Below, piece after piece: positions 2,755-29,144 of a stretch of DNA of 32,000 bases. Numbering within the stretch: the stretch's first letter is position 1; every line of letters starts with the position of its first letter. Origin of the DNA: Tannockella kyphosi (GTDB lineage: Bacteria > Bacillota_I > Bacilli_A > Erysipelotrichales > Coprobacillaceae); NCBI RefSeq assembly GCF_021054785.1, contig NZ_CP088239.1, forward strand, positions 1,170,001-1,202,000, in the 5' to 3' direction. The position numbers and the translations under genes were made by a program. The notes beneath the pieces are model-generated. The model was given only the letters and a program-made list of their open reading frames with translations. It ran no database searches and was not told where the DNA came from.

Positions 2755-3447
2755 ATGATTTATTCACACGAAGTAGAACAAATGTGTAGCGTTAAAGTTG
2801 GTGCTTCACATGGTTGTGCTCCAATTCCTCAAGAAGGAAATTGGGTACATTCTAAAGAAATCAAAGATATTTCTGGTTTAACACATGGTATTGGTTGGTG
2901 TGCTCCTCAACAAGGTGCTTGTAAATTAACATTAAATGTTAAAGAAGGTATTGTTGAAGAAGCATTGATTGAAACAATTGGTTGTTCAGGTATGACTCAC
3001 TCTGCAGCTATGGCTTCAGAAGCATTAGTAGGAAAAACTATATTAGAAGGGTTAAATACTGACTTAGTATGTGACGCTATCAATACAGCAATGAGAGAAC
3101 TGTTCTTGCAAATAGTTTATGGTCGTTCTCAATCAGCATTCTCTGAAGGTGGTTTACCTATCGGGGCTGGATTAGAAGACTTAGGTAAAGGTTTAAGAAG
3201 TATGACTGGTACTGCTTATTCAACAAAAGCAAAAGGACCTCGTTATTTAGAATTAACAGAAGGTTATATTAATAGAATCGCTTTAGATAAAAATGATGAA
3301 ATCATTGGATATGAGTTTATTAACTTAGGTAGAATGATGGATATGGTTAAAGCTGGAAAAGATGCTGTTACAGCAATGAGTGAAGCTACTGGAACTTATG
3401 GTAGATTTACTGAAGCTGTGAAATACATCGATCCAAGAAAAGAATAA
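2755..3447 (+). CDS. Divergent NifU-N/IscU-like Fe-S scaffold-like protein (partner of the GGGtGRT protein)
   Basis: It starts with the MIYSHEV motif seen in IscU/SufU-like proteins. Conserved Cys residues occur in GWCAPQQGAC and IGCSGMTHSAAMASEALVGKT (IscU-like GC...AS...GKT). Confidence 0.65.
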   Translation: MIYSHEVEQMCSVKVGASHGCAPIPQEGNWVHSKEIKDISGLTHGIGWCAPQQGACKLTLNVKEGIVEEALIETIGCSGMTHSAAMASEALVGKTILEGLNTDLVCDAINTAMRELFLQIVYGRSQSAFSEGGLPIGAGLEDLGKGLRSMTGTAYSTKAKGPRYLELTEGYINRIALDKNDEIIGYEFINLGRMMDMVKAGKDAVTAMSEATGTYGRFTEAVKYIDPRKE

Positions 3448-3464
3448 TTGGGAGGGATACGAAG

Positions 3465-11208: not shown

Positions 11209-12246
11209 TTAATCTTTAAGAAGCATGATATTTGATTTTGCAACCGCTATAACGCCTTGACTTTCTTTTATTTGTGCAAATTTATCTTTTGATACTTCCA
11301 TTACAAAAGATAATTCTCCACCTCTAGGAACAATCGTTAAAAGGTAACTAAACAATCTTTCCGTAACATCTTGAATATGAAAATGAAAAGTAACAATCGA
11401 ATCATCTTCTATATCACTAGCATCGATATAATAGAAGTCATTTGCACGAATCCCCACATAACGAAACAATCGTGAAGTAGGATAATGGAATCGAAGATTT
11501 AATTGTTCTATTACGATAAATTCCCCATCTAATCTAGCAGGATATAGATTTTGACATCCTGTTAGTATCGCACTATCATAGGTTTGTGGATTTAAAAACA
11601 ATTCATGTTTTTCTTTCATAGCAAGATTTGATCCATTTGTAATAACAGAAACCTTATGACTAAGTCGATATACTTCATCTCGATTATGAGAAACAAATAG
11701 AACAGTCTTTCCATATTCTTCTAATGTTTGGAATAGCTCTTTTTCTAACTTATATTTTAAGAAACTATCTAATGCTGAAAATGGTTCATCTAACAAGATA
11801 ATAGTAGGACATGTAACAATCATACGAGCAAGTGCACAACGTTGTTTCTGTCCACCAGACAATTGATCAGGATATTGATGTTGTTGGCGTGTAAGTTGAT
11901 AATCTTCTAATACTTGGTCTAGTGTTTTGTGACAAGTTGGTTGATAAGCAATTGCTATATTTTGACGAACCGTCATATTAGGAAATAATGCATAGTCTTG
12001 AAACAACAAACCCACGTGACGTTCTTGTGGTGATAAATCGATTTTTTTCTCACTATCAAAGTATATACAATCATCTACCACAATAGTCCCAGAATCAGGC
12101 TTTTCAACACCTGCAATGCAACGTAGAATCAGGCTCTTTCCAGAACCAGAAGCTCCTAGAAGTGATAAAATCTCATTTTCACCAAAAAATTCAATATCCA
12201 ATTTAAAATTATCAAACTCTTTTTTTATCTTACAATAAATAGACAT
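11209..12246 (-). CDS. modC: Molybdate ABC transporter ATP-binding protein
   Basis: Walker A GASGSGKS, signature LSGGQKQRCALAR, Walker B ILLDEPFSALD and a C-terminal regulatory-type extension. The ATG at 12246 has AGGAGG 7 nt upstream, whereas the ORF-track start at 12252 is a GTG. Confidence 0.85.
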   Translation of the reverse strand: MSIYCKIKKEFDNFKLDIEFFGENEILSLLGASGSGKSLILRCIAGVEKPDSGTIVVDDCIYFDSEKKIDLSPQERHVGLLFQDYALFPNMTVRQNIAIAYQPTCHKTLDQVLEDYQLTRQQHQYPDQLSGGQKQRCALARMIVTCPTIILLDEPFSALDSFLKYKLEKELFQTLEEYGKTVLFVSHNRDEVYRLSHKVSVITNGSNLAMKEKHELFLNPQTYDSAILTGCQNLYPARLDGEFIVIEQLNLRFHYPTSRLFRYVGIRANDFYYIDASDIEDDSIVTFHFHIQDVTERLFSYLLTIVPRGGELSFVMEVSKDKFAQIKESQGVIAVAKSNIMLLKD

Positions 12247-12269
12247 AATCACTCCTCCTCCCTATTCTT

Positions 12270-12923
12270 TTACTTATCTTTTTCTAACATATTCACTGTT
12301 AACATAACAGCAAATGAAATAACTAAGTTAATCATTACCCAAAACATTGCCTGTGAGTCTTGCCCAGTCTGCCAATAGTAAGCAACAGTTGTTGAAATAG
12401 TTGCGGTACTGTTTTGAATAAAACCTGAAACCATCGATGTTGCACCATATTCACCAAGCCCTCGTGCAAAAGATAGAACAAAACCAGCAACAATTCCTGT
12501 CCGACAATTTGGTAGGATTATTTTACGGAAAATAACAGAGTTCTTTAGCCCCAATGTCTTTCCTGCATAGATCAGATTCTTATCCAGTTGCTCAAAAGAT
12601 CCTCTTGCTGTCCGATACATAATCGGAAATGTGATAATAATAACTGCAAAAATGGACGAATACCAAGTCATTGTTAATGTAATACCAAAATATTCATTAA
12701 TAATCGAACCTAAAAGACCATTAGGAGCAATAAACATAAGTAATATAAATCCAACTACAGTTGGTGGAAGTACCATTGGAATCGTTAATAGTGCATCTAA
12801 AACACCTTTGTATCCTCTTGGTAACTTAGTAATATAAAACGCAAACAAAACACCTAATATCAAAGTGAAAACACTTGATATTAGAGATATTCTTATTGAA
12901 TTATAAAGAGGAAATAAATCCAT
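12270..12923 (-). CDS. modB: Molybdate ABC transporter permease
   Basis: 217 aa with 5-6 TM segments and an EAA-like loop (YAGKTLGLKNSVIFRKIILP). It sits between modA and modC. Confidence 0.88.
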   Translation of the reverse strand: MDLFPLYNSIRISLISSVFTLILGVLFAFYITKLPRGYKGVLDALLTIPMVLPPTVVGFILLMFIAPNGLLGSIINEYFGITLTMTWYSSIFAVIIITFPIMYRTARGSFEQLDKNLIYAGKTLGLKNSVIFRKIILPNCRTGIVAGFVLSFARGLGEYGATSMVSGFIQNSTATISTTVAYYWQTGQDSQAMFWVMINLVISFAVMLTVNMLEKDK

Positions 12924-12947
12924 ATGTACACCACCCTTTCTATTTGG

Positions 12948-13760
12948 TTACTTTGCAGTAATTAATACTAATTCATTTGATAACAATTCATAGACATTAT
13001 CCTCATCAATATAACCTAACTCCTCTAGTGTCTCTACTTCACTAGTTGATGCTGATATAAAAATATCCGTTATAGCACCATATTGAATCTGTGATGATAA
13101 TGTCCCACTTGAATCAAAACTTGCTATAATCTCTACTCCTTCATGTTCTTCCATAAACATGTTCGAAATCTCACTAATCGACTCCATTAAACTAGCAGCA
13201 GCAAAAATAGTAATAGTACAAGCTTCTAACTCTACTTCTTGTTCTATTGATTCTTCTGGCAAATAGGTAAATCCATTTTCTTCAAAAATAGCTATTGCAG
13301 TTGCTGTTGTTAAATAGTCCATAAAACATTGAACTGCTTCTTGATTCATTGAATCATTCATAATAGCAGCTGGATAAATAACAGGACTCTCTAATAAAGA
13401 ACTATCGATTGTTTCAACTACATAAACACCATCACTTGTAATAGCATCCGTTGCATATACAATACCACAACTAACAGACCCTAGTTCTACTTGAGATAGC
13501 ACTTCTTTTACACTACTGGCATAAGAAATTTTACTTTCAATTTCATCCCATATACCATAATTTACTAAAGCTTCTTTGGCATAACGGCCAACTGGTACAT
13601 CATCATTACCAAGAGCGATAAGGGATACACTATCTGTTGTTAAATCTAAAAGAGATGTAAGAGTAGTTTCTTGATTACTTGTATTTGCACTACATCCATT
13701 CAGTAGTATCATTGTAGCTATTAAGAAAGTTACTGTTATATTTTTTATGTTTACTTTCAT
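12948..13760 (-). CDS. modA: Molybdate-binding lipoprotein ModA, circularly permuted
   Basis: Lipobox LLNGC. All ModA motifs are present but in swapped order (see finding). The ATG at 13760 is preceded by GAGGAGGGG, whereas the ORF-track start at 13781 is a TTG. Confidence 0.85.
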   Translation of the reverse strand: MKVNIKNITVTFLIATMILLNGCSANTSNQETTLTSLLDLTTDSVSLIALGNDDVPVGRYAKEALVNYGIWDEIESKISYASSVKEVLSQVELGSVSCGIVYATDAITSDGVYVVETIDSSLLESPVIYPAAIMNDSMNQEAVQCFMDYLTTATAIAIFEENGFTYLPEESIEQEVELEACTITIFAAASLMESISEISNMFMEEHEGVEIIASFDSSGTLSSQIQYGAITDIFISASTSEVETLEELGYIDEDNVYELLSNELVLITAK

Positions 13761-13789
13761 TATCTTCCCCTCCTCATTCAATTATCTTT

Positions 13790-14782
13790 CTAACCACCTA
13801 TTTGTGACATTGATTTTTGTTCACTACTTTCAATACCTTTTTCTAAAAAACCATGTGCTTTGGGTTTTCTTTGAATCGTTTTTATAATAGCATCTTCGAT
13901 TTCTTGATTAGAAGAACCATTTCTTAATAAAGATAATAAATCACTTCCAATATCATATTGTAAACATGTTTTTAAGTATCCTTTTGAACTTAGTCTAACA
14001 CGATTACAAGAATCACAGAACTTATGGCTAATAGCACTAATAAAACCAACTTTACCCATAAACCCTTCTACTTCAAAATAACGACTAGGACCATGACCTA
14101 ATTTTCCTTCGTATTCCTTTATTTTACCAAAGTTAGCAGTTAATAAATCTTTAATTCTTTGTTCTTGATCAATATATTGTTTATCATCATCGATCATTTC
14201 TTTTCCCATACCAATTGGCATTAATTCAATAAAACGAACATGTATATTTTTATTTTTTGCAAGCAATACAATGTCCATAATTTCTTGATCACTAATATTA
14301 TTAGAAACACAATTTGTCTTTAAATTAATATTTGGATACGCTAATACTTTATCCATGGATGATAACACATCTTCTATTTTACCACCTCTAGTAAGTAATG
14401 AAAAATGAGTAGCATCTAATGTATCCAAACTAACATTAATAGCATCTAAGCCAGCTTTACTTAACTTATCAATATTATCTTCTAATAATATTCCATTAGT
14501 AGTAATTGAAACAGATTCAATACCTTCTATTCCTTTTATCTCTTTAATTAATTGATCAATTCCTTTACGAACCAAAGGTTCTCCACCTGTGAGTTTGATT
14601 TTTTTTACGCCAAGCTTTGCAAAAATAGAACATAGTTTGATTATTTCATCATAACGAATAATTTCATCATGTGATATTTGTTCTATTCCTTTTTCCGGCA
14701 TACAATAGACACATCTTAAATTACATCGTTCCGTCACAGAAATACGAACATAATCAATATTTCTTCCATAATTATCTATCAT
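13790..14782 (-). CDS. moaA: GTP 3',8-cyclase (radical SAM, Moco biosynthesis step 1)
   Basis: YVRISVTERCNLRCVYCMP radical-SAM motif, C-terminal FCDSCNRVRLSSKGYLKTCL cluster motif and a GG tail. Confidence 0.95.
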   Translation of the reverse strand: MIDNYGRNIDYVRISVTERCNLRCVYCMPEKGIEQISHDEIIRYDEIIKLCSIFAKLGVKKIKLTGGEPLVRKGIDQLIKEIKGIEGIESVSITTNGILLEDNIDKLSKAGLDAINVSLDTLDATHFSLLTRGGKIEDVLSSMDKVLAYPNINLKTNCVSNNISDQEIMDIVLLAKNKNIHVRFIELMPIGMGKEMIDDDKQYIDQEQRIKDLLTANFGKIKEYEGKLGHGPSRYFEVEGFMGKVGFISAISHKFCDSCNRVRLSSKGYLKTCLQYDIGSDLLSLLRNGSSNQEIEDAIIKTIQRKPKAHGFLEKGIESSEQKSMSQIGG

Positions 14783-14809
14783 TCTTCTCTCCCTCTATTT
14801 CTTCATTTA

Positions 14810-15241
14810 CTATTCAAGAATTTTTAAAATATCCCCTTCTTTAATAGAACCACCTTCTAATACAATCGCAAAGACACCTTCTCTAGGCATAATGCAATCA
14901 CCCATTTTTTTAAAGATTTCACATCCATGATGACATTGTTTTCCTATTTGTGTTAATTCTAATAATACATCATTGCAAGCAAATTTTGTACCTATTGGTA
15001 ATGTTTTAAAATCAATTCCTTCTACTAAAAGATTTTCTCCAAAAGAACCATCTACAATAGGTGCTCCTAAATTACGAAACTCCTCTACTTTATCAAAACT
15101 TAATAAACTTACTTGACGATGCCAATTACCAGCATGAGCATCATTTTCAATACCAAAATTAACAATAAAATTTGCTTGATGAATATTTTGTTTTTGAACT
15201 CCTTTTTTTTCACTAATACATACTGCTTTTACCATTCCCAT
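14810..15241 (-). CDS. Stand-alone MOSC-domain protein
   Basis: 143 aa. MVKAVCISEKKG...HRQVSLLS...GENLLVEG...IGKQCH is typical of short MOSC proteins found in moa operons. Confidence 0.75.
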   Translation of the reverse strand: MGMVKAVCISEKKGVQKQNIHQANFIVNFGIENDAHAGNWHRQVSLLSFDKVEEFRNLGAPIVDGSFGENLLVEGIDFKTLPIGTKFACNDVLLELTQIGKQCHHGCEIFKKMGDCIMPREGVFAIVLEGGSIKEGDILKILE

Positions 15242-15259
15242 AATCTTTCTTCCCTTCTC

Positions 15260-16252
15260 TTATTTTAAGTTTGCTCTTACTAGAATTAATTGAGCTGCAA
15301 TACTAATTGCTATTTCAGCTGGTGTTTCACTTTTAATAGAAATACCTATTGGTGTTGTAATACGACTTATATCTTCTTCATTAAATCCTTTTTCCATTAA
15401 CTTTGCTTGTACTGTTTTAATTTTACTACGACTTCCAACCACTCCGATATAACAAGCAGGTGTTTTTAAAGCAAACTCTTGGACGTATTGATCTCCTAAG
15501 TGACCTCTAGTTACAGCGATAATATAATCATGGTTAGTGACTTGATAATATGCTTGATATTCCATCAATTGTTCATAATGACAAACATTCGTATCAATTG
15601 CATCTGGAAACAACTCTTTTTTACTAAAGTCTTCGCGATCATCACTAACAATACAACGAAATCCTAAATGTGATAAAACTGGTACTAACTCTTGAGCTAA
15701 ATGTCCTCCACCAAAAATAAAGACACGACTTTTGTTTTCAATCTTGTGGACATAATAGCAATCTTGTCCTACTTTCATTAGACCTGCTTGTAAGTTATTA
15801 CAATCAATTCCTGTTATCCCTATTATTTCATCTTCATAGCAGTATCCCACTTGCATACCATCCATCGATAAAACAAGCCAACCTAATTGATTAGAGACCA
15901 TATGATTTGTTAATGTTTCAATCAAAGAAGCATCTTTTTGATAAGAAATGTAACTGAATAATACATCTACATCTCCTCCACATACCATACCTAAATTTGC
16001 TGATTCCTCAATTCGTAAACGATACTGTTTTAACTCCCCTGTTTTGTTTTGTAAATGTATTTTGGCTAATTCAATTGATTGAAATTCCAACATCCCACCA
16101 CCAATAGTACCACTCATTAACCCATCTTTATCCACTACCATAAATGCTCCCGTAGTTCTAGGTGCACTACCAACATTATCAACAATTGTTACTAACATAC
16201 AATCTTCACTAACATCTAATTTTTTAGTTAACGATCTTATTATTTCTTTCAT
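15260..16252 (-). CDS. XdhC/CoxI-family molybdenum cofactor insertion/maturation chaperone
   Basis: XdhC_CoxI N-domain (VGSAPRTTGAFMVVDKDGLMSGTIGGG) plus a Rossmann-like C-domain (VFIFGGGHLAQELV). The ATG at 16252 follows the upstream stop and a GGGGAAAAAG RBS. Confidence 0.85.
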   Translation of the reverse strand: MKEIIRSLTKKLDVSEDCMLVTIVDNVGSAPRTTGAFMVVDKDGLMSGTIGGGMLEFQSIELAKIHLQNKTGELKQYRLRIEESANLGMVCGGDVDVLFSYISYQKDASLIETLTNHMVSNQLGWLVLSMDGMQVGYCYEDEIIGITGIDCNNLQAGLMKVGQDCYYVHKIENKSRVFIFGGGHLAQELVPVLSHLGFRCIVSDDREDFSKKELFPDAIDTNVCHYEQLMEYQAYYQVTNHDYIIAVTRGHLGDQYVQEFALKTPACYIGVVGSRSKIKTVQAKLMEKGFNEEDISRITTPIGISIKSETPAEIAISIAAQLILVRANLK

Positions 16253-16262
16253 ACTTTTTCCC

Positions 16263-17294
16263 CTATTTCCCGAATCCACAATTCGGGAAAGTACAAATAT
16301 CACAACCTAAACAAAGTCCACCTTCACCTAGTCTATCTATCATTTCTCTATTTATTGGCACATCTGCCATTACTTTTGGTAAAACAAGATCAAAAATAGT
16401 TCGTTTTGCATACATTACACATCCAGGTAACCCCATTATTGGTTTATTATCTTTTGAATATGCCATCAAGAACATTGCTCCTGGTAATACTGGTGCCCCA
16501 TAAGTAATAATAGTAGCTCCACTATTTTTAATAGATAATGGTGTTTTATCATCTGGATCCACACTCATCCCACCAGTACAAATAATCATATCAACACCTT
16601 TATCTAACATATCTTGAATAATAAGGGTTATTTTTTCAAAATCATCATCTACTATTTCATGAAGTACCATTTCTCCACCAAACTCTGCTAGTTTATCTTG
16701 AATAACTGGAGTAAAGGTATCTTGAATACGTTTATGATAAATTTCATTACCTGTTGTGATAACACCATATTTCTTCGTTTGAAAAGGAATCACATTTAGT
16801 AATGGTTCTCCATTAGAAACCTTTACTACTGTTTCTTTTGCCTTTTCCATCTTTTCTTTTTCTATTACCAAAGGAATAATACGAGTTCCTGCAAGTTTGT
16901 CTCCCTTTTTAACAGCAAAACCACCATGTCTAGATGCAATCATCATTTGTCCAAAAGAATTAATAGCGTTTATCCCTTCTTTATGAACACATAACAAACC
17001 ATCACAATTTGCAATCAATTCTATTTTTCCTTCTTTTACTTTTCCAGCAACAATATTACTACCCATTGCTAGTTCCTTAAGAATCTCTGCTGCATCATTT
17101 TCATGTAACATCGTTTCATCATTTTCACAAATATAAATATGATCTTTTCCAACAGACAATAAAACAGGAATATCCTCTTCTTTTATTAGATGCCCTTTTG
17201 AAAAAACAACATCTTTTGTAACCCCTCTTATAATTTGAGTAATATCGTGATATAACACTTGTCCTACTGCATCCACCGTTTTGATACTTTTCAT
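16263..17294 (-). CDS. Molybdopterin-binding (MoCF_BD/MoaB-MogA-like domain) protein with a C-terminal Cys cluster
   Basis: VITTGNEIY...MIICTGGMSVDPDDKTP is a MoCF-binding domain signature. The C-terminus is CLGCDICTFPNC. GGGAGG lies 7 nt before the ATG at 17294. The ATG at 17300 overlaps the upstream TGA and is also possible. Confidence 0.7.
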   Translation of the reverse strand: MKSIKTVDAVGQVLYHDITQIIRGVTKDVVFSKGHLIKEEDIPVLLSVGKDHIYICENDETMLHENDAAEILKELAMGSNIVAGKVKEGKIELIANCDGLLCVHKEGINAINSFGQMMIASRHGGFAVKKGDKLAGTRIIPLVIEKEKMEKAKETVVKVSNGEPLLNVIPFQTKKYGVITTGNEIYHKRIQDTFTPVIQDKLAEFGGEMVLHEIVDDDFEKITLIIQDMLDKGVDMIICTGGMSVDPDDKTPLSIKNSGATIITYGAPVLPGAMFLMAYSKDNKPIMGLPGCVMYAKRTIFDLVLPKVMADVPINREMIDRLGEGGLCLGCDICTFPNCGFGK

Positions 17295-17296
17295 TT

Positions 17297-18376
17297 TCAT
17301 TCCTCCCTAATAAAAGCATTCCTTATTTTTTCTTCTACCTTTAATGCTTGTAAATATCGTTCTTGATGTTTTTCAATTGCTTCTTGCGTGCAACATTTAC
17401 GAAGACTTGCTTCAAATCTTTGTTGTAAGGATACCCTTAATGTTCCTTGTACTAATTTATCTGCATAATACAAAATCATTGCCTCATCTAATAATGCATC
17501 ACCTTTGATATCATGATGAAGTTGGATAATAGACCCTAATTGAATATATCCTAAATGATATAATTGTTCCTTTGCTAGTAATGGATGATCTTTGCCATGA
17601 TGACGCATCATATCATGTAACAAAGCACTAGTTAGAAGCAATTCTTTATCCAATGAACATTGATCTTTTAATAATTCATATAATTCAAGGCAAACACGTT
17701 GTACCTCATAGCTATGTTCTATGACTACTTGTGGTGTTTTACATTGAAAGAATATTTGTTCTATTTCTTGATGACTAGGGATTGAATCCCTTTTTTTATT
17801 TATTGCAACAAAGTTCCACTTCTTTTCCTCTATTTCCACTACACTAAGAGTTCCATAATCAACACGTGGCATTCCATCTTTACAAGGATCTAAATTTTCT
17901 AATTTATGTACTAACGCTCGTATTAATCCATCATGAATAACAAGCACTAAGTCACTAGATTTATTTAAAAGTAAGAACTGTATTGTTTTGATAAGGCGGT
18001 TTACACCATCTTCTAATGTCTCCCCATTACTAGGGACTATCGACCAATCTTTTCCTCTTTGTTGATAAAGAGTTGGATATAGTTCTTGAATTTGTTGGAA
18101 TGTCTTTCCTTCAAAATCTCCCATATCTAATTCTTGCAAAGAAACAATTGGTTGATATTTTTGTTGAACAGAAACCATTTCTAAAGCACTTTGATAACTC
18201 CTTGCTAGATTACTACAATAAATAGTGTCGATGTTTGAAAAACAATCTTTCCATACTCTTACTTGTTCTTTCCCTTCTTTTGATAAAAACAAGTCTGTTT
18301 GACTACCTATACAGATTTTCTTTCCCTCTTTAAATAGTGGTTTTCCATGACGAATTAAATAAACATATCTTTTCAT
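17297..18376 (-). CDS. Fusion protein: histidine-phosphatase (PGM/CobC-like) N-domain + HD-domain phosphohydrolase C-domain
   Basis: N-domain: YLIRHGKP (RHG motif), SNLARSYQSA, VIHDGLIRAL. C-domain: ALLHDMMRHHGKDH...QLHHD...YYADKL, the HD metal-binding pattern resembling YqeK-type HD hydrolases. Confidence 0.7.
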   Translation of the reverse strand: MKRYVYLIRHGKPLFKEGKKICIGSQTDLFLSKEGKEQVRVWKDCFSNIDTIYCSNLARSYQSALEMVSVQQKYQPIVSLQELDMGDFEGKTFQQIQELYPTLYQQRGKDWSIVPSNGETLEDGVNRLIKTIQFLLLNKSSDLVLVIHDGLIRALVHKLENLDPCKDGMPRVDYGTLSVVEIEEKKWNFVAINKKRDSIPSHQEIEQIFFQCKTPQVVIEHSYEVQRVCLELYELLKDQCSLDKELLLTSALLHDMMRHHGKDHPLLAKEQLYHLGYIQLGSIIQLHHDIKGDALLDEAMILYYADKLVQGTLRVSLQQRFEASLRKCCTQEAIEKHQERYLQALKVEEKIRNAFIREE

Positions 18377-18389
18377 TTTTCATCCCTCA

Positions 18390-19232
18390 CTACTGCTTTA
18401 TAATAATTGCAGTTCCATGCAAATCACAAAGTTCTACTAATACCAATGATCCATATTCTTTTTCATAATCCTCAACTGCTTTTTTAACTCCTTGAAATCT
18501 TTGATTCCCATAATCATGTAATAAAATAATAGCTCCTTTATTCATTCTTTTAATAAACCACTTTAATCCTTCATAAGTAGGTGTATAAAGATCTACATCA
18601 ATACTAACTAAAGCAAAGGTTTCTTCTATCCCGATTGTTGTATCTGGAAAATAACCTTCTTTTATAATTACCTGACTAGGATTCGATAATTTTTCTAAAA
18701 CCATTTGAATACTAGTATTTTGAAATTCTTCTTTATATGCTTTTGATAATCCTGTTTCATTTTCCATTTGAATATCTCGTTCATCAAAACCATTAAATGT
18801 ATCAAATAAATATAATTTTCTTCTAGGAAAAACTGCATTTAATACTTTAGAGAATTCTCCTTGAAAAACTCCTAATTCCGCTACTGCTCCTTCGATATCT
18901 TTTAATCTATCTTTTAATTTGATAGTAAAAGCACTACGAATATCAATTGCTTCTATTAATTTGGTTATTTCAATAATTTCTTTATTATAACCATTATGAT
19001 GTAATTGTTTGATTATTTCAGTTTGACGTTCTATTCCTGTAACAGCCACTAAAATAACATCAATAGGCAATAATAATGCTTCTTCCATTGTATAAAGAGG
19101 AATATTTTTAATCATTGTTTGTTCTTTCTTTGCATTATCACCAAAACCTATTAAATGATAATGTTTTTGATTGATGAGAGGTAATACTGCTTGACCCATC
19201 TGTCCTGCTCCAAAAATTAATAAATTTTTCAT
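18390..19232 (-). CDS. TylF/MycF-family class I SAM-dependent O-methyltransferase with an N-terminal Rossmann-like extension
   Basis: ELGVFQGEFS...LYLFDTFNGF...SIDVDLYTPTYEGL...ILLHDY matches the macrocin-O-methyltransferase family pattern. The N-terminus is LLIFGAGQMGQAV. The ATG at 19232 follows AGGGGGA and the upstream TAA. Confidence 0.65.
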   Translation of the reverse strand: MKNLLIFGAGQMGQAVLPLINQKHYHLIGFGDNAKKEQTMIKNIPLYTMEEALLLPIDVILVAVTGIERQTEIIKQLHHNGYNKEIIEITKLIEAIDIRSAFTIKLKDRLKDIEGAVAELGVFQGEFSKVLNAVFPRRKLYLFDTFNGFDERDIQMENETGLSKAYKEEFQNTSIQMVLEKLSNPSQVIIKEGYFPDTTIGIEETFALVSIDVDLYTPTYEGLKWFIKRMNKGAIILLHDYGNQRFQGVKKAVEDYEKEYGSLVLVELCDLHGTAIIIKQ

Positions 19233-19233
19233 T

Positions 19234-20160
19234 TTATTCCCCCTTACCAAAATGCTTTGTGAATGATTGTTCACTAAAAGCAGTAACTTCTTCTATATAC
19301 ATTTCATATTTATTTAATAATTCTTTTCCTTCTTTAGTAAGACTACTTGTACCTCCATATTCTCCTCCTTGCCTTCTTTCCAACAAAGAAAAACCAAAAG
19401 CCTGTTCCATTTCTTTAATCATTATCCAAGCTTTACTATAAGAAATACCAATTTTATCACATGCATCTTTTACTGTTCCTGTATATTCAATAGCTTGTAA
19501 TAAAACAGTAGAGGTTTTATCTAATATCTTTTTTTCTCTAATAATAGAAATATCAATAATTGGTCTTAATAACTGTTCACTATGCATTTTTACTAAACGT
19601 TCATAATCACCCATCGTATCAGCATCTCTTAAAACACCTTCATCATCTACTTGTAAAATATCAATTTTAGGACAACATTCATAAATCATTGCTTTTAAAC
19701 CATCATTTCTTTTACAAGCGATTATTTTTGGTAATATTTTATTAGAAAATAGGATTGGATGACCATCTTCATTATCACAAACAGGTTTAATAAAATCGAC
19801 ATTCGTTTGCATCAATCTACGTACTGTACCTACCGTAAACAAAGGAACATCTACTGGTGTAAAGAAAACTCGATCACATTTATCTAATAGAAATGAAAAT
19901 CCCATTTTTGCTGAATCAGACATTTGTGTTGTTTCATAGGAATCATTACGAATATAAATAACACCTTGTTTTGCAATATGTTTTTCTAATTCTGCTGCCC
20001 GATATCCTGTTACTACCACAATTGGTGATACTCCCGCTTGTTGAAAGTTTGCAATAATTCTTTTTACAATCGTAATAGAACCCATTTTCATCATTGGTTT
20101 AAATTCACCCATTCTACTAGACATCCCAGCTGCTACAATCACAGCTCCTGTTCTTTGCAT
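19234..20160 (-). CDS. Fusion: MocA/MobA-like molybdenum cofactor nucleotidyl(cytidylyl)transferase + ModE-N-type winged-helix DNA-binding domain
   Basis: The N-terminus AVIVAAGMSSRMGEFKPMMKMG is the MobA-like NTP-transferase P-loop. C-terminal residues about 200-290 read GTVKDACDKIGISYSKAWIMIKEMEQAFGFSLLERRQGGEYGGTSSLTKEGKELL. These align with E. coli ModE ISQGAKDAGISYKSAWDAINEMNQ...VERATGGKGGGGAVLT. No Mop/TOBE domain is present. Confidence 0.8.
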   Translation of the reverse strand: MQRTGAVIVAAGMSSRMGEFKPMMKMGSITIVKRIIANFQQAGVSPIVVVTGYRAAELEKHIAKQGVIYIRNDSYETTQMSDSAKMGFSFLLDKCDRVFFTPVDVPLFTVGTVRRLMQTNVDFIKPVCDNEDGHPILFSNKILPKIIACKRNDGLKAMIYECCPKIDILQVDDEGVLRDADTMGDYERLVKMHSEQLLRPIIDISIIREKKILDKTSTVLLQAIEYTGTVKDACDKIGISYSKAWIMIKEMEQAFGFSLLERRQGGEYGGTSSLTKEGKELLNKYEMYIEEVTAFSEQSFTKHFGKGE

Positions 20161-20184
20161 TTAGACCCCTCCTAATCTTTTTTT

Positions 20185-20208
20185 CGAATTATATTTTTTT
20201 ACAATTCG
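20185..20208. promoter_or_regulatory. 9-N6-9 inverted repeat, candidate operator for the ModE-type domain
   Basis: CGAATTATA-tttttt-TACAATTCG, with half-sites identical at 8 of 9 positions. It occupies the spacer and -10 of the operon promoter. Confidence 0.4.
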
Positions 20209-20216
20209 CTTATCAA
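20188..20216 (-). promoter_or_regulatory. Sigma-A promoter of the Moco maturation / molybdate uptake operon
   Basis: On the minus strand: TTGATA (20216-20211), 17 nt of spacer, TATAAT (20193-20188), about 28 nt upstream of the ATG at 20160, which has an AGGAGGGG RBS. Confidence 0.6.
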
Positions 20217-20219
20217 AGC

Positions 20220-20251
20220 ATAGCATCATAATATTTCTATTATGATGCTAT
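20220..20251 (-). terminator. Hairpin downstream of hydroxylase module 1 (terminator or processing site)
   Basis: 13-bp perfect inverted repeat atagcatcataat / attatgatgctat with a 6-nt loop. Only a short U-tract follows on the minus strand. Confidence 0.45.
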
Positions 20252-20264
20252 TATTTTTTATTCT

Positions 20265-22616
20265 TTAGATAAGTGTTTCCACAAAATCTCTTACCATTGT
20301 ACGTAAGGATTCTACTTTATAACCATTATCTCTCATTACCATGACATTTTCCACTGCCACTTCACTAGCTTTTAACGCTAATTCTTTGCTTGGAACTTGT
20401 CCTTTTAATACTTCTTCTACTGCACTTGCACGGAATGGAACTGGTGCAACTCCACCAAATACCAAACGAATATCTTCAATAGTTCCATCTACAACTTTAA
20501 TATCACTAGCAACTGCTACTAATGCAAAGTCAATTGCTTTACGTAAACGGAATTTAGCATAATCACTCTTCCATCCATCTCTTGAAGGAATATGAATTGC
20601 TTTTACTAATTCTCCTCTTTCAAGTTTATATTCTGGACGTAATTTATCGCTAAAGAATTCTACTCCAGATAATGTACGTACTGTTGTTTCTACAGTTACA
20701 TCTAAAGCTAATAACATATTGGCCATATCAGAAGCGTTCGAAGAATAACATCCACAGTTCATACAACGGCTTGCTTCTACTGCTGCTTCCATTTCTGTTA
20801 ATGAACTAGAATCTTCTACATCTAAACAACGTTTTTCTACTGGTGTATCCACTAATTGAGATGCTTTTACTAATTTTACTCCTTCAGGATCAAATGTTAA
20901 GAAAGCTTCTTTTTCAATTTCTAAAACCATTGGCATACCCATGTATTTTGTCATATTTCTAGCTGCATTTCCTCCAGCACGAACTGCTTGAATAGCTAAA
21001 GAAGGTCCTGTTGCAACATCACCACCAGCATAAACACCAGCATGACGTGTATCATTATGTTCTCCAACTTCAATTAATCCTCTTACTGATTGAATTTCAT
21101 CTTTAAAATGATCTCCTAAGAAATCCAAATCAACTCTTTGACCTGTTGCTAGGATAATACTTGGTGTTTCAATAAATGAAACATCTGCTTCATCATATAC
21201 AGGACTAAAACGTCCTTTTTCATCAAATACATGAAGACATTTTTTAGTTTCTAATCCTAATACTTTATCACCTTCATAACGAACTTTGTTTAATCCAAGT
21301 CCATTTAAGATAATAACACCTTCTTCTAATGCACGATCTACTTCTTCTTTTGATGCTGGCATTTGTTCTCTTTGTTCTAGACAAACTAAAGTAACTTTCT
21401 TAGCTCCCAAACGTTTTGCTGTTAATGCTACGTCCATCGCAACATTCCCACCACCACATACTAATACTTCTTCGTCAATTTTACTTGTCATCCATTGTTT
21501 TACTTCAACTAAGAAATTTAAACCAAATTGAGTTAAATTTTCACCATCAATTCCTAAAATAGGTTGTTTCCATGCTCCTGTATCGATGAACACTGTATCA
21601 AAAGTTTCTTCTACTTCTTCAAAAGAAATATCTTCTCCTACTGTTGTATTAAATTTAAATACAACTCCCATACCTTCAATAGCACTATTATATTCACGCA
21701 TTAATGCTTTTGGTAAACGATATTCTGGTATACCGTACATTAATACCCCACCAGCTTCTGGCATTTTTTCAAAAATTGTTACTGCATGTCCCATTTTTCT
21801 TAAATAGAATGCGGCTGCTAATCCTGCTGGACCACTACCTACAATCCCAACTGATTTTCCTGATTCACTACTTGGTGCAGGGAAATAAGTTGATTTATTT
21901 TTCAAGATATAATCACCTAATGTACGTTCAACTGCATGAATATTAACAGAATCACCATGGTTACTTTGATTACATTTTGTTTGACAAGTATGAGGACAAA
22001 CTCTACTTGTTAACATTGGCATTGGGTTTGCACGTAATATTATTTTGGCAGCTCCATCCCAATCACCTTGTCTAATTTTTTCCATATATCCAGAGATATC
22101 AGTTCCAGCTGGACATTCATTACTACATTTTGTACGAGCTGTTTTCATACCTCCAAAAATACTATGATAACGATTATCTCCTAATACTGCATAGCATAAA
22201 TCCCCATCTTTACGTGCACAATCAAGGCGGCCACCTTGGTTATGCGGATAACGATAATACCAACAACGTACATCTTGGCAAATATTACCACCAATAGTCG
22301 CTGCATTACGGATAATAGGTGTTGCAACGCTGTTAGCAGCTTTGCGTAAACCTGTTGGAACAGATTCATCATCAGATATTTCTGACAATGTATTCATTGC
22401 ACCTAGTACGATAGAACCATCTTCATTAACTGTAGTTTCTTTAGCACCTATTGTTTTAAGATCAACTACAACATCAGGAGTTTTTTCTAATATGGCTGAT
22501 TTCATCAAGCCAACAAGATCCGTACCTCCAGCAATGGAAGTCCCACTTTTTGACACTTTGATAAGTTCTGAGGCTTCTTCAAATGTCTTTGCTTCTTTAT
22601 GTTCAAACTTTCTCAT
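20265..22616 (-). CDS. Module 1 flavoprotein: CoxM/XdhB-type FAD-binding subunit with an inserted four-Cys loop and GltD-like NAD(P)H:FAD/Fe-S oxidoreductase module
   Basis: N-terminal part: FAD_binding_5-like (SIAGGTDL, ATIGGN). Central part: GltD-like CSNECPAGTDI...NPMPMLTSRVCPHTCQTKC, GIVGSGPAGLAAAFYL, VCGGGNVAMDVA, YAGGDV. C-terminal part: ASDMANMLLALD plus a CO_deh_flav_C-like tail (VFGGVAPVPFRA). Confidence 0.85.
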   Translation of the reverse strand: MRKFEHKEAKTFEEASELIKVSKSGTSIAGGTDLVGLMKSAILEKTPDVVVDLKTIGAKETTVNEDGSIVLGAMNTLSEISDDESVPTGLRKAANSVATPIIRNAATIGGNICQDVRCWYYRYPHNQGGRLDCARKDGDLCYAVLGDNRYHSIFGGMKTARTKCSNECPAGTDISGYMEKIRQGDWDGAAKIILRANPMPMLTSRVCPHTCQTKCNQSNHGDSVNIHAVERTLGDYILKNKSTYFPAPSSESGKSVGIVGSGPAGLAAAFYLRKMGHAVTIFEKMPEAGGVLMYGIPEYRLPKALMREYNSAIEGMGVVFKFNTTVGEDISFEEVEETFDTVFIDTGAWKQPILGIDGENLTQFGLNFLVEVKQWMTSKIDEEVLVCGGGNVAMDVALTAKRLGAKKVTLVCLEQREQMPASKEEVDRALEEGVIILNGLGLNKVRYEGDKVLGLETKKCLHVFDEKGRFSPVYDEADVSFIETPSIILATGQRVDLDFLGDHFKDEIQSVRGLIEVGEHNDTRHAGVYAGGDVATGPSLAIQAVRAGGNAARNMTKYMGMPMVLEIEKEAFLTFDPEGVKLVKASQLVDTPVEKRCLDVEDSSSLTEMEAAVEASRCMNCGCYSSNASDMANMLLALDVTVETTVRTLSGVEFFSDKLRPEYKLERGELVKAIHIPSRDGWKSDYAKFRLRKAIDFALVAVASDIKVVDGTIEDIRLVFGGVAPVPFRASAVEEVLKGQVPSKELALKASEVAVENVMVMRDNGYKVESLRTMVRDFVETLI

Positions 22617-24957: not shown

Positions 24958-25452
24958 TTATTCCTCCTTTCCATTAATTGAGCTAATTGCTTCTAAAACA
25001 CGATATTGACTAATACATCTGCATAAATTTCCTGATAATGCTTCAGAAATATCTTCTTCTGTAGGGTTTGGATTACGGATAAATAAAGCTCTAGCCGCAA
25101 TTACAATACCTGGTGTACAGAATCCACATTGGAATGCAGAATAATCAAAAATAGCTTGTTGAATAGGGTCTAATTTCCCAGTTACTGGATCAGCAAGACC
25201 TTCAATTGTAACGATCTTCTTCCCTTCACATTCCACTGTTAAAGTGACACATGAAGCTTCTGCTTTATCGTCAATAAGCACTGCACAAGCACCACAGCAC
25301 CCTTCACCGCAACTTAATTTTGTACCTGTTAATCCAAGACGTTCACGAATTGTATTTACCAATAATTCATTGGTAGGAATTTGCCCCATCTTGTCGCCAA
25401 TCATAAATTCATAGTCTTTACCATTGACATTTAGTGTTACAGTATCTCTCAT
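24958..25452 (-). CDS. Module 1 [2Fe-2S]x2 small subunit
   Basis: Contains CGEGCCGAC...C and FQCGFCTPG...CRC motifs. AAGGAGG RBS. Confidence 0.93.
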   Translation of the reverse strand: MRDTVTLNVNGKDYEFMIGDKMGQIPTNELLVNTIRERLGLTGTKLSCGEGCCGACAVLIDDKAEASCVTLTVECEGKKIVTIEGLADPVTGKLDPIQQAIFDYSAFQCGFCTPGIVIAARALFIRNPNPTEEDISEALSGNLCRCISQYRVLEAISSINGKEE

Positions 25453-25590: not shown

Positions 25591-26244
25591 ATGACACAAC
25601 CAACTAAAAAACAAATAACACATGAAAAGATACTAACAAGTGCCATCTACTTATTTTCAATTTATGGTTACGAAGGCACTACCACTCGTATGCTTTCAAA
25701 AGAATCTGGATATAATATTTCAACTATTTTCCATCATTTTGAAAACAAAGAAGGTTTATATATTGCCGCCATGAATCATATGGCCCAAGAAATGAATAGC
25801 CATTTACTCCCAACAACGATCAAAGTAAATAAACGACTTGAAGAAGAGTGTTCTATTGAAGAAGCATGGGAATTAATTGAAGAATTCATTACACTTCTTG
25901 TTATGACATTATCTAGTCCTACTCAAAAGAATACATTCTTTCTACTAATCAGAGAACAAACTAGTCCTCCAAAAGGAGACTTCCCACTCTCTCGAGTAAT
26001 CTATGACAATGTAGAACATCCAATTAAAAACTTACTTCAAAGAATATACCCAGATATAACTCATACTACCCTTGCTTTGCATGCTAGAATGATTACTGGT
26101 GGAATCATTTCCCAAGTAGAACACCCAGTGTTTTTACGCTGGATGTTAGGTCTACCAGACGACGCTGATATAAAACCTCGTGTTTGGGAAAAAGTAAAAG
26201 ATTTATGTATGATATATATAAATACCGATTTAAATAACGATTAA
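25591..26244 (+). CDS. TetR/AcrR-family transcriptional regulator
   Basis: The N-terminal HTH region ILTSAIYLFSIYGYEGTTTRMLSKESGYNISTIFHHFENKEGLY is classic TetR_N. Confidence 0.9.
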   Translation: MTQPTKKQITHEKILTSAIYLFSIYGYEGTTTRMLSKESGYNISTIFHHFENKEGLYIAAMNHMAQEMNSHLLPTTIKVNKRLEEECSIEEAWELIEEFITLLVMTLSSPTQKNTFFLLIREQTSPPKGDFPLSRVIYDNVEHPIKNLLQRIYPDITHTTLALHARMITGGIISQVEHPVFLRWMLGLPDDADIKPRVWEKVKDLCMIYINTDLNND

Positions 26245-26705
26245 GCGTGTGGTGGAATACCAAGCGCTTTTTTTACTAATGGAATACCTGTACATAATCC
26301 AATATTTTGTGATAACCAAGTTAAGAATAATGATAATGGATAAGATGCTACTACTGATGCTACATAGAAATCTTGGTAACCAGGAACATCTTTCATTCCC
26401 CACCAAGTCATGAATGAACTCATAATAGTAGCCATAATTAATGCCACTAATACAGTAGATACTAATTGATGTTTAATATCTCTTCTGTCTAATTTAAATA
26501 AATCACCAAACTTATTCCCTAAAGGAGCAATTGGTAAGAATGTCATTAAAATAAACCCTATAATAACACCTAATACATAACTACTTGCAAAACTAGATAA
26601 TGTTAAACCTGTTCCATTTGCAATAGGTACAATTGTATTTAAGAAAATATTTAAAATCAACGATACCCACGCATTTAATAATACATCAAACTTTGTTATT
26701 TTCAT
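26241..26705 (-). CDS. Small integral membrane protein (about 4 TM, two-repeat appearance; possibly DUF2798-like)
   Basis: 154 aa with four hydrophobic segments. GGGAGG lies 7 nt before the ATG at 26705. Its stop overlaps the TetR stop. Confidence 0.55.
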   Translation of the reverse strand: MKITKFDVLLNAWVSLILNIFLNTIVPIANGTGLTLSSFASSYVLGVIIGFILMTFLPIAPLGNKFGDLFKLDRRDIKHQLVSTVLVALIMATIMSSFMTWWGMKDVPGYQDFYVASVVASYPLSLFLTWLSQNIGLCTGIPLVKKALGIPPHA

Positions 26706-26722
26706 TTGTCTGCCTCCCATGA

Positions 26723-26777: not shown

Positions 26778-29144
26778 TTATTTTACTGCTAAAATATTAC
26801 GAATTACTAAAGCTTTGATTTCAGTAATTTTATAATTATTATGTTCCATTGCAATTGCATCTTTAATAGCAAGAGCTCCAGCACTTTCAGCTACTTCTTC
26901 ACTAATCGCTTTACCTTTTAAGAAAGCTTCTACTTCATCTAATTTATATGGTACTGGTGCAACTCCACCTAATACTAATTTAGCATCTTCAATAACTCCA
27001 TCTACTACTTTGAAAGCAGAAGATAAACTTACGATTGCAAAATCCATCCCATCACGGACACGGAATTTATCATAACTAGAAGTATATCCTTCTAATACTG
27101 GTACTTGAATTTCAGTTACTAATTCACCATGTTCTAACATATCTTTTGTTTTTAGTTTTGTAGTAAAGAAGTCAACAGCTTTGATTTCTTTTTTAGTAGT
27201 AACAATTGTTCCATCTAACATCACTAATACTGGTGAAATATCAGAAGCATTTACTGAGTAACATCCACAATTCATACAACGTTTTGCTTCTTTTGAAGCT
27301 AATTCAAGAGATAATGATTTTTCATCTTCATCCACTAATGTACGACTAGCTACAGGAAGTTCTTCTAACTTACAAGATTCTTCTACTTTTACACCTTCTA
27401 CATCAAAAGTCTTATAACCTTTTTCAGATGCTTCACGTTTGATTGGATATCCCATTTTTGCACTCATAGAATGAGCTGCTAAGTTACCTGCATGAATTGC
27501 ACGAATTGCAATATTAGGTCCTGTAACAACATCCCCACCTGCAAAGAATTTTTCATTTTTAGTTTGATAAGTTTCTTCATCTACTTCTAATAAACCACGT
27601 TCTGATTTAATTTGAGAAGCGAACTCATCACCTAAGAAGTCTACGTCTACACGTTGACCTGTTGCTAAGATAATACTATCTGATGTAAATACAGTAGTTT
27701 CATCATGATCATATACTGGTGCAAAACGATTTTTTTCATCAAAAACACTTACGCATTTCATTGATTCTAAACCACTTACTTTTCCATCGGCATCTTTGAT
27801 AACACCTTTTAGACCCCAACCATTTTCAATTTCAATACCTTCTTCTAAAGCTCTTGCAATTTCTTCTTTTGTTGCAGGCATTGCTTCTCTTGATTCAAGA
27901 CATACTAATTTAACACTCTTAGCTCCTAAACGTCTTGCTGTTAATGCTACGTCCATCGCAACATTACCACCACCACAAACTAATACGTTTTCACCAGTAG
28001 CTTTTTGTAAGAATGTATTTACATCTTGTAAGAAGTCTAAACCAAATTGAGTTAATTCTTCTCCTGTAATACCTAATACTGGTTGTTTCCAAGCACCTGT
28101 ACCAAAGAATACAGTATCAAAACGCCCTTCCACTTCTTCCATTGATATTTCTTTACCAACAGTAGTATTCATTTCAAAAGTAACTCCCATACCTTCCAAA
28201 GCACTTGCATATCCTTCTACAATATCCTTAGGTAAACGATAATGAGGAATACCATACATTAATACCCCACCAGCTTTTTCATGAGAATCAATCACAGTAA
28301 CACTATGTCCTTGACTTCTTAAATAATAAGCAGCAGTTAAACCACCAGGACCAGCTCCAATAATACCAACAGATTTACCTGTTTCAGCTTTTGGTGCTAC
28401 ATAGAATTTTTCTTTATTTTCTAAAATATAATCTCCTAATGTACGTTCCACACAGTGAATAGCTACGCTATCACCATTTTTATCATGGTTACATCTGTCT
28501 TCACAAGGATGTGGACAAATTCTTGAAGTACACATTGGCATTGGGTTTACACGCATAATTATTTTTGCAGCTTCATCCCAGTTCCCTTTTCTAATTTCAC
28601 CCATATAAGAGGAAACATCAGTTCCAGCAGGACAACCTTTTGTACAAGCACTAGTTACAATTTTCATACCACCAAATACAGAATGATAACGATTTTCTCC
28701 TAATACTGCAAAACATTCTTCTCCACCTTTTTGTTGACATACCATTTTCCCACCAACATCTTCAGGATAACGATAATACCAACAACGAACATCTTGACAA
28801 ACATTCCCACCAATAGTTGCAGAATTACGAACTAATGGAGTTGCTACCGATTTTGCAGCTTGGCTTAACGCTGGTGCCCCAGCTAATAATTCTTCTGATT
28901 TTTCTAAGCAACCTAACTTTGTGATAGCACCAATTTTAATAGTCCCATCTTGTGCAGTTACATAAGATCCACCATCTACTTTTCTTAAACTTACTAATTC
29001 TTCTGGATATTTTGTTAAAATATCACTTTTTAATTCAAAAATTAAATCTGTACCACCAGAAACTGGTACACTATTTTCATTTGCTTTTATTATTTCTGCA
29101 GCTTCATCAAATGATTTTGCAGATTTGTATCCAAATTTTTTCAT
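26778..29144 (-). CDS. Module 2 flavoprotein: same CoxM-FAD / four-Cys loop / GltD-like mosaic as module 1
   Basis: Collinear with 20265-22616: VSGGTDL, ATIGGNVCQDVRCWYYRYP, CTKGCPAGTDV, IIGAGPGGLTAAYYL, VCGGGNVAMDVA, FAGGDV, CMNCGCYS, ASDISPVLVMLD, LGGVAPVPYK. Confidence 0.85.
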   Translation of the reverse strand: MKKFGYKSAKSFDEAAEIIKANENSVPVSGGTDLIFELKSDILTKYPEELVSLRKVDGGSYVTAQDGTIKIGAITKLGCLEKSEELLAGAPALSQAAKSVATPLVRNSATIGGNVCQDVRCWYYRYPEDVGGKMVCQQKGGEECFAVLGENRYHSVFGGMKIVTSACTKGCPAGTDVSSYMGEIRKGNWDEAAKIIMRVNPMPMCTSRICPHPCEDRCNHDKNGDSVAIHCVERTLGDYILENKEKFYVAPKAETGKSVGIIGAGPGGLTAAYYLRSQGHSVTVIDSHEKAGGVLMYGIPHYRLPKDIVEGYASALEGMGVTFEMNTTVGKEISMEEVEGRFDTVFFGTGAWKQPVLGITGEELTQFGLDFLQDVNTFLQKATGENVLVCGGGNVAMDVALTARRLGAKSVKLVCLESREAMPATKEEIARALEEGIEIENGWGLKGVIKDADGKVSGLESMKCVSVFDEKNRFAPVYDHDETTVFTSDSIILATGQRVDVDFLGDEFASQIKSERGLLEVDEETYQTKNEKFFAGGDVVTGPNIAIRAIHAGNLAAHSMSAKMGYPIKREASEKGYKTFDVEGVKVEESCKLEELPVASRTLVDEDEKSLSLELASKEAKRCMNCGCYSVNASDISPVLVMLDGTIVTTKKEIKAVDFFTTKLKTKDMLEHGELVTEIQVPVLEGYTSSYDKFRVRDGMDFAIVSLSSAFKVVDGVIEDAKLVLGGVAPVPYKLDEVEAFLKGKAISEEVAESAGALAIKDAIAMEHNNYKITEIKALVIRNILAVK

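Follow-up and report, generated by a model that had tools for sequence, protein, structure and literature searches.

A MocA-like nucleotidyltransferase joined to a ModE-type winged helix, with a conserved inverted repeat over its own promoter: a candidate regulator of molybdenum-cofactor supply in Bacillota

The stretch of the Tannockella kyphosi genome analyzed here (32,000 nucleotides; RefSeq assembly GCF_021054785.1, contig NZ_CP088239.1, positions 1,170,001 to 1,202,000; hereafter, the window) encodes, at the head of a ten-gene operon, a protein in which a MocA-like nucleotidyltransferase domain is followed by a winged helix-turn-helix (HTH) domain of the ModE type. This fusion protein, on which literature searches found no publication, is very likely an uncharacterized regulator of molybdenum-cofactor (Moco) supply. 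An inverted repeat that overlaps the promoter of the fusion gene recurs upstream of related fusion genes, and judging from its conservation and from the homology of the HTH domain, the protein very probably binds this repeat as its operator. The reading that we favor, with a confidence somewhat above even, is that of a bifunctional protein reminiscent of BirA, a cytidylyltransferase that would also be the autorepressor of the operon encompassing cofactor-maturation genes, moaA, and modABC.

The architecture is observed directly, and Pfam, NCBIfam, and alignment to Protein Data Bank (PDB) sequences all agree with the first-pass annotation of this DNA, which had proposed a MocA/MobA-like domain joined to a ModE-type winged helix and lacking the di-Mop/TOBE domains. 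Pfam identifies NTP_transf_3 (aa 6-160, E=3.1e-28) and HTH_1 (PF00126; aa 220-278, E=2e-7, 31.3 bits vs a gathering cut-off of 26.6) and detects no TOBE/Mop domain in the fusion protein at E<=1; the protein terminates 15 aa past the HTH domain. The N-terminal half is nearest to the DVU_1551 family NTP transferase of NCBIfam (NF045665, 1e-53, profile positions 2-196 of 359) and also matches MocA over profile positions 2-188 of 188 (TIGR03310, 1.1e-33), with a much weaker match to MobA (about 1e-4 to 1e-5). The C-terminal region, for which a check against ModE and LysR HTH models had been suggested, matches both: in addition to the above-threshold HTH_1 hit, aa 214-293 align with ModE_repress (TIGR00637, E=6.2e-19, 80 of 100 profile positions), and a phmmer search of PDB sequences aligns aa 207-289 with residues 14-96 of Escherichia coli ModE (1b9m, E=9.5e-9; 1o7l, ~1e-8). 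The motifs previously singled out as ModE-like all line up in the 1b9m alignment, namely, GISYSKAW with GISYKSAW, EM, and ERRQGGEYGG..LT with ERATGGKGGG..LT.

Identity as a LysR-type transcriptional regulator was rejected because, although HTH_1 is present, it is located at the C terminus rather than the N terminus, and Pfam finds no LysR substrate-binding domain in the fusion protein; ModE itself was rejected given the absence of the Mop domains and the reversed domain order. The AlphaFold2 model of the fusion protein, built with 25 homologues, is confident (predicted local distance difference test 84, predicted template modeling [TM] score 0.82) and includes a 29-residue C-terminal helix (aa 276-304) after the winged helix. 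In Foldseek, the N-terminal domain superposes on the MobA/MocA-related Rv0371c (2wee, TM 0.84, and 2we9, 0.82, on the target) and on chains of 3d5n (TM up to 0.85), and MobA (1e5k) is matched as well. ModE is not among the top 50 Foldseek matches obtained with the whole model, where the nucleotidyltransferase domain dominates, so that the ModE homology of the HTH domain rests on sequence.

The promoter of the fusion gene conforms to the sigma-70-type consensus at 11 of 12 positions, with TTGATA at 20216-20211 and TATAAT at 20193-20188, much as the first-pass annotation had described it (near-consensus, with a 17-nt spacer), and the 9-N6-9 inverted repeat that it had placed over the -10 hexamer and the spacer was recovered by exact match at the same position. 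On the minus strand (20208-20185), the repeat reads CGAATTGTA-AAAAAA-TATAATTCG (on the plus strand, CGAATTATA-TTTTTT-TACAATTCG), 8 of the 9 arm positions being complementary. Starting 2 nt past the -35 hexamer, it covers the -10 hexamer and ends 3 nt beyond it; with the predicted transcription start as reference, it spans about -28 to -5. Considered only within the window, the repeat lacks significance, with three matches to a degenerate pattern allowing two mismatches compared to 1.7 expected; its significance as a predicted operator comes from conservation rather than from the window repeat as such. A weight matrix derived from the related loci described below gives the window operator 32.6 bits, compared to 15.7 bits for the second-ranking position of the 32 kb, making the autoregulatory site the only strong operator in the window. 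A second site, at 25346-25369, was treated as a chance occurrence (two mismatches, 12.8 bits, within a coding region).

A metagenome scan with the family alignment yielded 80 loci encoding relatives that are 43-60% identical, and in the regions upstream of the related fusion genes, the same element is apparent by eye. The consensus of 31 distinct sites is CGAnTTGTA-N6-TACAAnTCG, with an A/T-rich N6. A 16-position seed is matched at 12 or more positions by 46 of 75 upstream regions, vs 3.9% of random 200-nt pieces from the same loci. In a non-redundant set, clustered at 80% identity with the window excluded (n=29 upstream regions), 12 regions match the seed at 13 or more of the 16 positions; dinucleotide-preserving shuffles of these 29 regions give a mean of 0.03 matches and at most 1 in 200 trials. 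With the weight matrix, a site of at least 14 bits is found within 1.2 kb upstream in 24 of 37 clusters (80% identity), and the downstream control gives 5 such sites in 204,819 positions. The repeat is, accordingly, conserved in related loci with a fixed 9-N6-9 geometry, the outcome on which the earlier interpretation had been made to depend. The closest relative (75% protein identity) retains the site, as CGAGTTGTAAAAAAAAATAATTCG, while the flanks diverge, and it is the only strong site in that locus.

What is conserved in the operator is the sequence, not the pairing: position 4/21 varies freely without compensation, which points to a protein-binding site rather than an RNA hairpin. A hairpin or terminator interpretation of the repeat was rejected on these grounds, the arms being AT-rich besides. 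The recognition helix and the operator also vary together, with SYSKAW helices accompanying CGAGTTGTA...TCG sites, and LSYSSCW and HISYSTSW helices accompanying the outer bases CAA...TTG; this covariation is suggestive of direct readout, though confounded by phylogeny. Two enumerations contributed little: that of exact palindromic 5-mers in the upstream regions, too strict for imperfect sites, gave no clear signal, and hexamer enrichment returned the half-site words TTGTAA and GAGTTG, which are confounded by AT-rich promoters and were not used as evidence.

Relative to strong predicted promoters, the operator occupies a small number of fixed registers. It is centered at -16 in the window, covering the spacer and the -10 hexamer; at +14 in about 12 loci, covering the start site, with the site itself located at +2 to +25 and containing no promoter hexamer; at -27 in 5 loci, covering the -35 hexamer and the spacer; and at -37 in 3 loci. 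All these registers overlap the polymerase footprint, the classical repressor arrangement, and the fusion protein is likely to repress its own expression. The predicted regulon seems to be wider than that, given that related loci also have operators ahead of Mo-enzyme genes and modA. Thirty-two additional sites score 14 bits or more, and all of them fall outside the mapped homologues of the window genes. A recurrent one is located ~85 nt upstream of a small conserved open reading frame (ORF) that precedes a 925-aa gene of the aldehyde oxidoreductase (AOR) type; the terminal TTG of this site begins the -35 hexamer, and its position, about -56 to -33, would allow for repression or for ModE-like activation. 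A further site lies upstream of modA in locus L008. The conserved ORF before the AOR-type gene is ~88 aa long (MNEELFEI...) and is found in locus L011 at 3417-3800 as well as at equivalent positions in L010-L020, L026, L034, L045, L052, and L081; the left half-site of the operator preceding it is at the same time the 3' arm of the terminator hairpin of the methyltransferase gene (AAAAAGCAATTCGCAG...CTGCGAATTGCTTTTT).

The fusion is by no means peculiar to T. kyphosi. A search of 5.8 billion proteins with the fusion protein recovered 1188 homologues at E<=1e-10, from Bacillota (Negativicutes, Eubacteriales, Faecousia), annotated merely as 'NTP transferase domain-containing protein', 'MocA', or 'ModE-like'. 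The best 120 of the listed homologue clusters are full length (about 305-320 aa, 47-99% identity), all but 3 of them have both Pfam domains, and in the family alignment, both domains hold many invariant residues. When the C-terminal 113 aa alone were compared to 1.84 billion representatives at 50% identity, 68 of the best 150 combined the HTH domain with NTP_transf_3, and 1 with TOBE, indicating that this winged-helix subfamily mainly partners with a MocA-like domain, not with Mop. The other representatives are mostly short (roughly 90-240 aa), without a second Pfam domain, and a few contain other domains. A search of genome contigs with the single protein produced one distant ModE-like match (L001), and for the stand-alone winged-helix relatives P0130, P0155, and P0145, no operator was found on their contigs of about 1.3 kb or less.

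The state of the nucleotidyltransferase domain bears on whether it is an enzyme or a sensor. Among the best 120 homologues, the nucleotide-binding loop AAGxSSRMGxFKP is intact in 111 and Lys21 is present in 118, with Asn72, Asp104, His134, and Asp173 invariant; Lys21 and Asp104 presumably match essential residues of MobA. The prevalence of the intact loop favors a bifunctional enzyme and repressor over a mere replacement of the sensor. Furthermore, this is the only MocA-like gene amid a maturation set specific for the molybdopterin cytosine dinucleotide (MCD) cofactor, which favors the view that the domain is still a cytidylyltransferase; no further NTP_transf_3 gene is present in the window, and a second copy within the flanks was detected in only 1 of the 80 loci. 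We consider catalytic activity of the fusion protein reasonably likely.

The fusion gene is followed, in order, by genes for a TylF-like methyltransferase, a His-phosphatase with an HD domain, a MoeA-like MoCF_biosynth protein, XdhC, a MOSC protein, MoaA, ModA, ModB, and ModC (Table 1). With such short gaps, a single promoter, that of the fusion gene, most likely drives all ten genes through modC. In the 80 loci, the genes that follow the fusion gene downstream are those for His-phosphatase/HD, then MoeA-like or XdhC, then, in some cases, MoaA-MOSC, and then ModABC; a methyltransferase gene and a gene for an AOR-type Mo enzyme are often oriented divergently from the cluster. Control by a Moco riboswitch was rejected inasmuch as Rfam shows no match either in the window or among 14 related loci with moaA or modABC.

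Table 1. Coordinates of the fusion gene, its domains, and the associated features in the window
Feature	Position	Strand	Basis and remarks
Fusion gene	19234..20160	-	ORF, 308 aa, ATG start; MocA/DVU_1551-like nucleotidyltransferase domain, then ModE-type winged helix
NTP_transf_3 domain, aa 1-196, motif AAGMSSRMGEFKP and Asp104	19573..20160	-	Pfam, NCBIfam, Foldseek
ModE-type winged helix, aa 207-293, recognition helix GISYSKAW, wing RRQGGEYGGTSSLT	19282..19542	-	TIGR00637, ModE 1b9m alignment
Ribosome-binding site AGGAGGGG	20166..20173	-	Read from sequence; strong; 5 nt before fusion-gene ATG
Sigma-70-type promoter, TTGATA (-35), 17-nt spacer, TATAAT (-10)	20188..20216	-	Promoter scan, 11/12 consensus positions
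Predicted operator, 9-N6-9 inverted repeat	20185..20208	.	Exact match, 32.6 bits, conserved in related loci
14-bp hairpin, terminator-like	20220..20251	.	Between the upstream operon of the xanthine dehydrogenase (XDH) type and the promoter; kept in the 75%-identical relative
Nine genes behind the fusion gene	11209..19232	-	NCBIfam and Pfam; all gaps <=27 nt; synteny conserved in 80 loci

BirA, NadR, PutA, and the archaeal RbkR are fusions of an enzyme with a repressor. In the logic of the BirA type, a cofactor enzyme joined to an HTH domain represses the genes for synthesis or import of the cofactor, with the enzyme-bound intermediate or product as the corepressor; repression by BirA depends on biotinyl-AMP. 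The features of this class are present here, that is, a cofactor-related enzyme and a DNA-binding domain in one polypeptide and a predicted operator at the promoter of a cofactor operon. In the corresponding scenario, the N-terminal domain would be a MocA-type Mo-molybdopterin (Mo-MPT) cytidylyltransferase that makes the MCD cofactor for the neighboring enzymes of the XDH family, and the winged helix would bind, as a dimer, to CGAnTTGTA-N6-TACAAnTCG over its own promoter, blocking RNA polymerase and repressing the fusion gene together with the cofactor-maturation genes, moaA, and modABC. The affinity for DNA would be set by the occupancy of the enzyme domain with Mo-MPT, cytidine triphosphate (CTP), or undelivered MCD, and both transport and synthesis would be shut off once the supply of the cofactor exceeds the demand. 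There seems to be an even chance that the effector is cofactor-related. The fusion protein would take the role that elsewhere is played by molybdate-ModE and by the Moco riboswitch. The likeness to BirA is one of logic only, with neither domain being homologous and the domain order being different, and the corepressor role of MCD or Mo-MPT is hypothesized.

Several observations weigh against the bifunctional autorepressor. All three curated families are matched below their cut-offs: ModE_repress at 67.9 vs 98.5 bits, MocA at 116.8 vs the equivalog cut-off of 186.45 bits, and DVU_1551 at 182.7 vs 315 bits; identity with the curated MocA or DVU_1551 equivalogs was rejected for this reason and because of the different architecture. 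The regions scored by the weight matrix are those from which it had been derived, the seed and shuffle tests being cleaner in this respect, and 13 of the 37 clusters have no strong site, several of these with incomplete upstream sequence. The half-sites resemble the -10 (TACAAT) and -35 (TTTACA) hexamers, and part of the operator signal could be promoter conservation. In about 9 of the 120 homologues, the nucleotide-binding loop is degenerate, so catalysis is not universally required, and some lineages may have retained no more than a binding or regulatory function. Finally, we infer DNA binding as well as the oligomeric state, the effector, and catalysis.

Some of these observations are what would be expected if the nucleotidyltransferase domain were purely a sensor that replaces Mop and only binds Mo-MPT, MCD, or CTP, with a separate MocA elsewhere making MCD. 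The few homologues with the lost SSRMG loop keep the rest of the protein, the MocA score is below the equivalog cut-off, and the partner HD domain of the DVU_1551 type has moved to another gene; nevertheless, the loop is intact in 111 of the 120 homologues, with many active site-like residues invariant, and the fusion gene is the sole MocA-like gene in a cluster with an MCD-specific maturation set, XdhC, and XDH-family enzymes, which makes the purely sensory role unlikely. A different possibility, and an improbable one, is that the protein is bifunctional but binds DNA independently of any ligand, providing for simple negative autoregulation of operon dosage, with the Mo or cofactor status sensed elsewhere or nowhere. 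The overlap of the predicted operator with the protein's own promoter is consistent with such a circuit, and ModE-like proteins without a metal-binding domain do exist, in Desulfovibrio (PMC545781) and, going by a title cited in PMC7759655, in Campylobacter jejuni. The stability of the fusion in no fewer than 68 clusters (50% identity), however, suggests allosteric coupling, and the operators before Mo-enzyme genes and modA point to a regulon that responds to status.

It is very improbable, in our estimate, that the inverted repeat is not the operator of the fusion protein, being instead the site of another regulator or simply a feature of the promoter or a hairpin. The resemblance of the half-sites to promoter hexamers, the lack of significance of the pattern within the window alone, and the double duty of one half-site as the 3' arm of a terminator hairpin in some loci would be compatible with such an origin. 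Against it, the site accompanies the fusion gene across a diverse set of loci among which no other regulator gene is shared, has the geometry of the ModE box, is conserved in sequence rather than in pairing (with the uncompensated variation at 4/21), and varies in concert with the recognition helix. The +2 to +25 sites, which contain no promoter hexamer, and the conserved outer CG imply, moreover, that the signal does not simply reflect conserved promoter hexamers.

The closest parallel among the known regulators is ModE, the winged HTH domain of which is homologous to that of the fusion protein, with the SY(K/S)(S/K)AW recognition helix and the GG..GG..LT wing in common. The E. coli-type ModE box, atCGnTATATA-N6-TATATAnCGat (PMC545781), agrees with the statement in the first-pass annotation that proteobacterial ModE operators are AT-rich inverted repeats bracketed by CG; its 9-N6-9 spacing and outer CG are also those of the predicted operator, with which it shares 5 of 9 half-site positions, the cores being TATATA in the ModE box and TTGTA in the fusion family. 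The predicted targets of the fusion protein, like those of ModE, include modABC and moaA. In contrast, ModE has an N-terminal HTH domain followed by di-Mop/TOBE and senses molybdate, whereas in the fusion protein the HTH domain is C-terminal, Mop/TOBE is lacking, and the signal is presumably something other than molybdate. Archaeal ModE binds to a related palindrome, RTTATGT-N8-RCATAAY, in the electrophoretic mobility shift assay (PMC12327845). The single-domain ModE of Desulfovibrio, with no attached molybdate sensor, is a predicted regulator of molybdate transporters (PMC545781), and a ModE-like protein of C. jejuni regulates such transporters, according to the title cited in PMC7759655; unlike the fusion protein, these are stand-alone HTH proteins without an enzyme domain, and their operators are different, e.g. 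CGGTCACG-N14-CGTGACCG. On the enzymatic side, MocA (E. coli YgfJ) and DVU_1551 share the NTP_transf_3 fold with the fusion protein, the gene of which is likewise located near XdhC and XDH-family enzymes, and the structures closest to the N-terminal domain by Foldseek E-value are those of the MobA/MocA-related Rv0371c; the fusion protein differs in carrying a DNA-binding domain and in lacking the HD half of DVU_1551.

In the excerpted text of a 2024 review (PMC11672702), the only metal sensing so far ascribed to the regulator family of ModE is that of molybdate by ModE itself, the Moco riboswitch is described as controlling genes of the moaA and modABC kinds in response to the cofactor rather than molybdate, and ModE and this riboswitch are the only systems named for molybdenum control. 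The riboswitch is RNA-based, which the fusion protein is not, but both would control the same kinds of genes. If our reading is correct, the last enzyme of MCD synthesis is fused to a ModE-type DNA-binding domain widely across Bacillota, and the family, including its gut Oscillospiraceae-type loci, would add protein-level sensing of cofactor supply and demand. Tentatively, and with less confidence than we attach to the autorepressor as such, this could be the first protein sensor of molybdenum-cofactor rather than molybdate status: a BirA-like MCD synthase and repressor, its affinity set by Mo-MPT or undelivered MCD, that replaces ModE and the Moco riboswitch in many Bacillota and couples uptake, Moco synthesis, and possibly apo-enzyme expression to demand, repressing its own operon and, possibly, activating at AOR promoters. 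An operator consensus is now defined and a regulon predicted; the annotation of 'NTP transferase', 'MocA', and 'ModE-like' proteins could be improved, and it becomes easier to interpret how anaerobes regulate enzymes of the xanthine-dehydrogenase and aldehyde-oxidoreductase types.

The other genes of the operon show several peculiarities. The His_Phos_1 and HD protein (17297-18376, minus strand) matches the C-terminal half of the DVU_1551 family (profile positions 164-357), and with the fusion gene corresponding to the N-terminal half, the domains have been reshuffled between adjacent genes; in locus L083 (3000-4898), the TylF-like methyltransferase, the His-phosphatase, and the HD domain are joined in a single 632-aa protein. 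The MoeA-like protein (16263-17300, minus strand) has, apart from a Cys-rich tail (GGLCLGCDICTFPNCGFGK), only a MoCF_biosynth domain, at the C terminus; no other protein of the cluster is as highly conserved, its identity being 58-70% in loci where that of the fusion protein is 44-57%. Two listed starts seem to be too far upstream. The GTG start of the methyltransferase gene (18390-19274, minus strand; a PglD_N-like N terminus and a TylF-type methyltransferase) overlaps the fusion gene by 41 nt, and the ATG at 19232, one base past the fusion-gene stop and after AAGGGGG, is the likelier start (280 aa, compared to 275 aa in L082). The listed GTG start of XdhC (15260-16303, minus strand) overlaps the MoeA-like gene by 41 nt as well, and because the NCBIfam match begins at aa 21, the true start is probably further downstream.

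Beyond the operon, the flavin adenine dinucleotide (FAD) subunits of both tandem XDH-family operons (20265-22616 and 26778-29144, minus strand; 783 and 788 aa) contain a ~470-aa GltD-like module (Fer4_20 and Pyr_redox_2, NAD(P)H-binding) inserted mid-protein, between FAD_binding_5 (aa 3-114) and CO_deh_flav_C (aa 692-780), which is unusual for an XdhB-type subunit. A TetR-family regulator (25591-26244, plus strand) is encoded divergently from the second XDH-type operon, at a location where there is no operator of the fusion protein, and is likely to be a substrate-specific regulator of the XDH structural genes; an adjoining 159-aa ORF (26241-26720, minus strand), between the two XDH operons, has no family match. 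At 2755-4463 (plus strand), a GGGtGRT-family protein (PF14057, E=1.6e-194) is encoded behind a 230-aa protein with a weak NifU_N-like match, a pair unrelated to the fusion gene.

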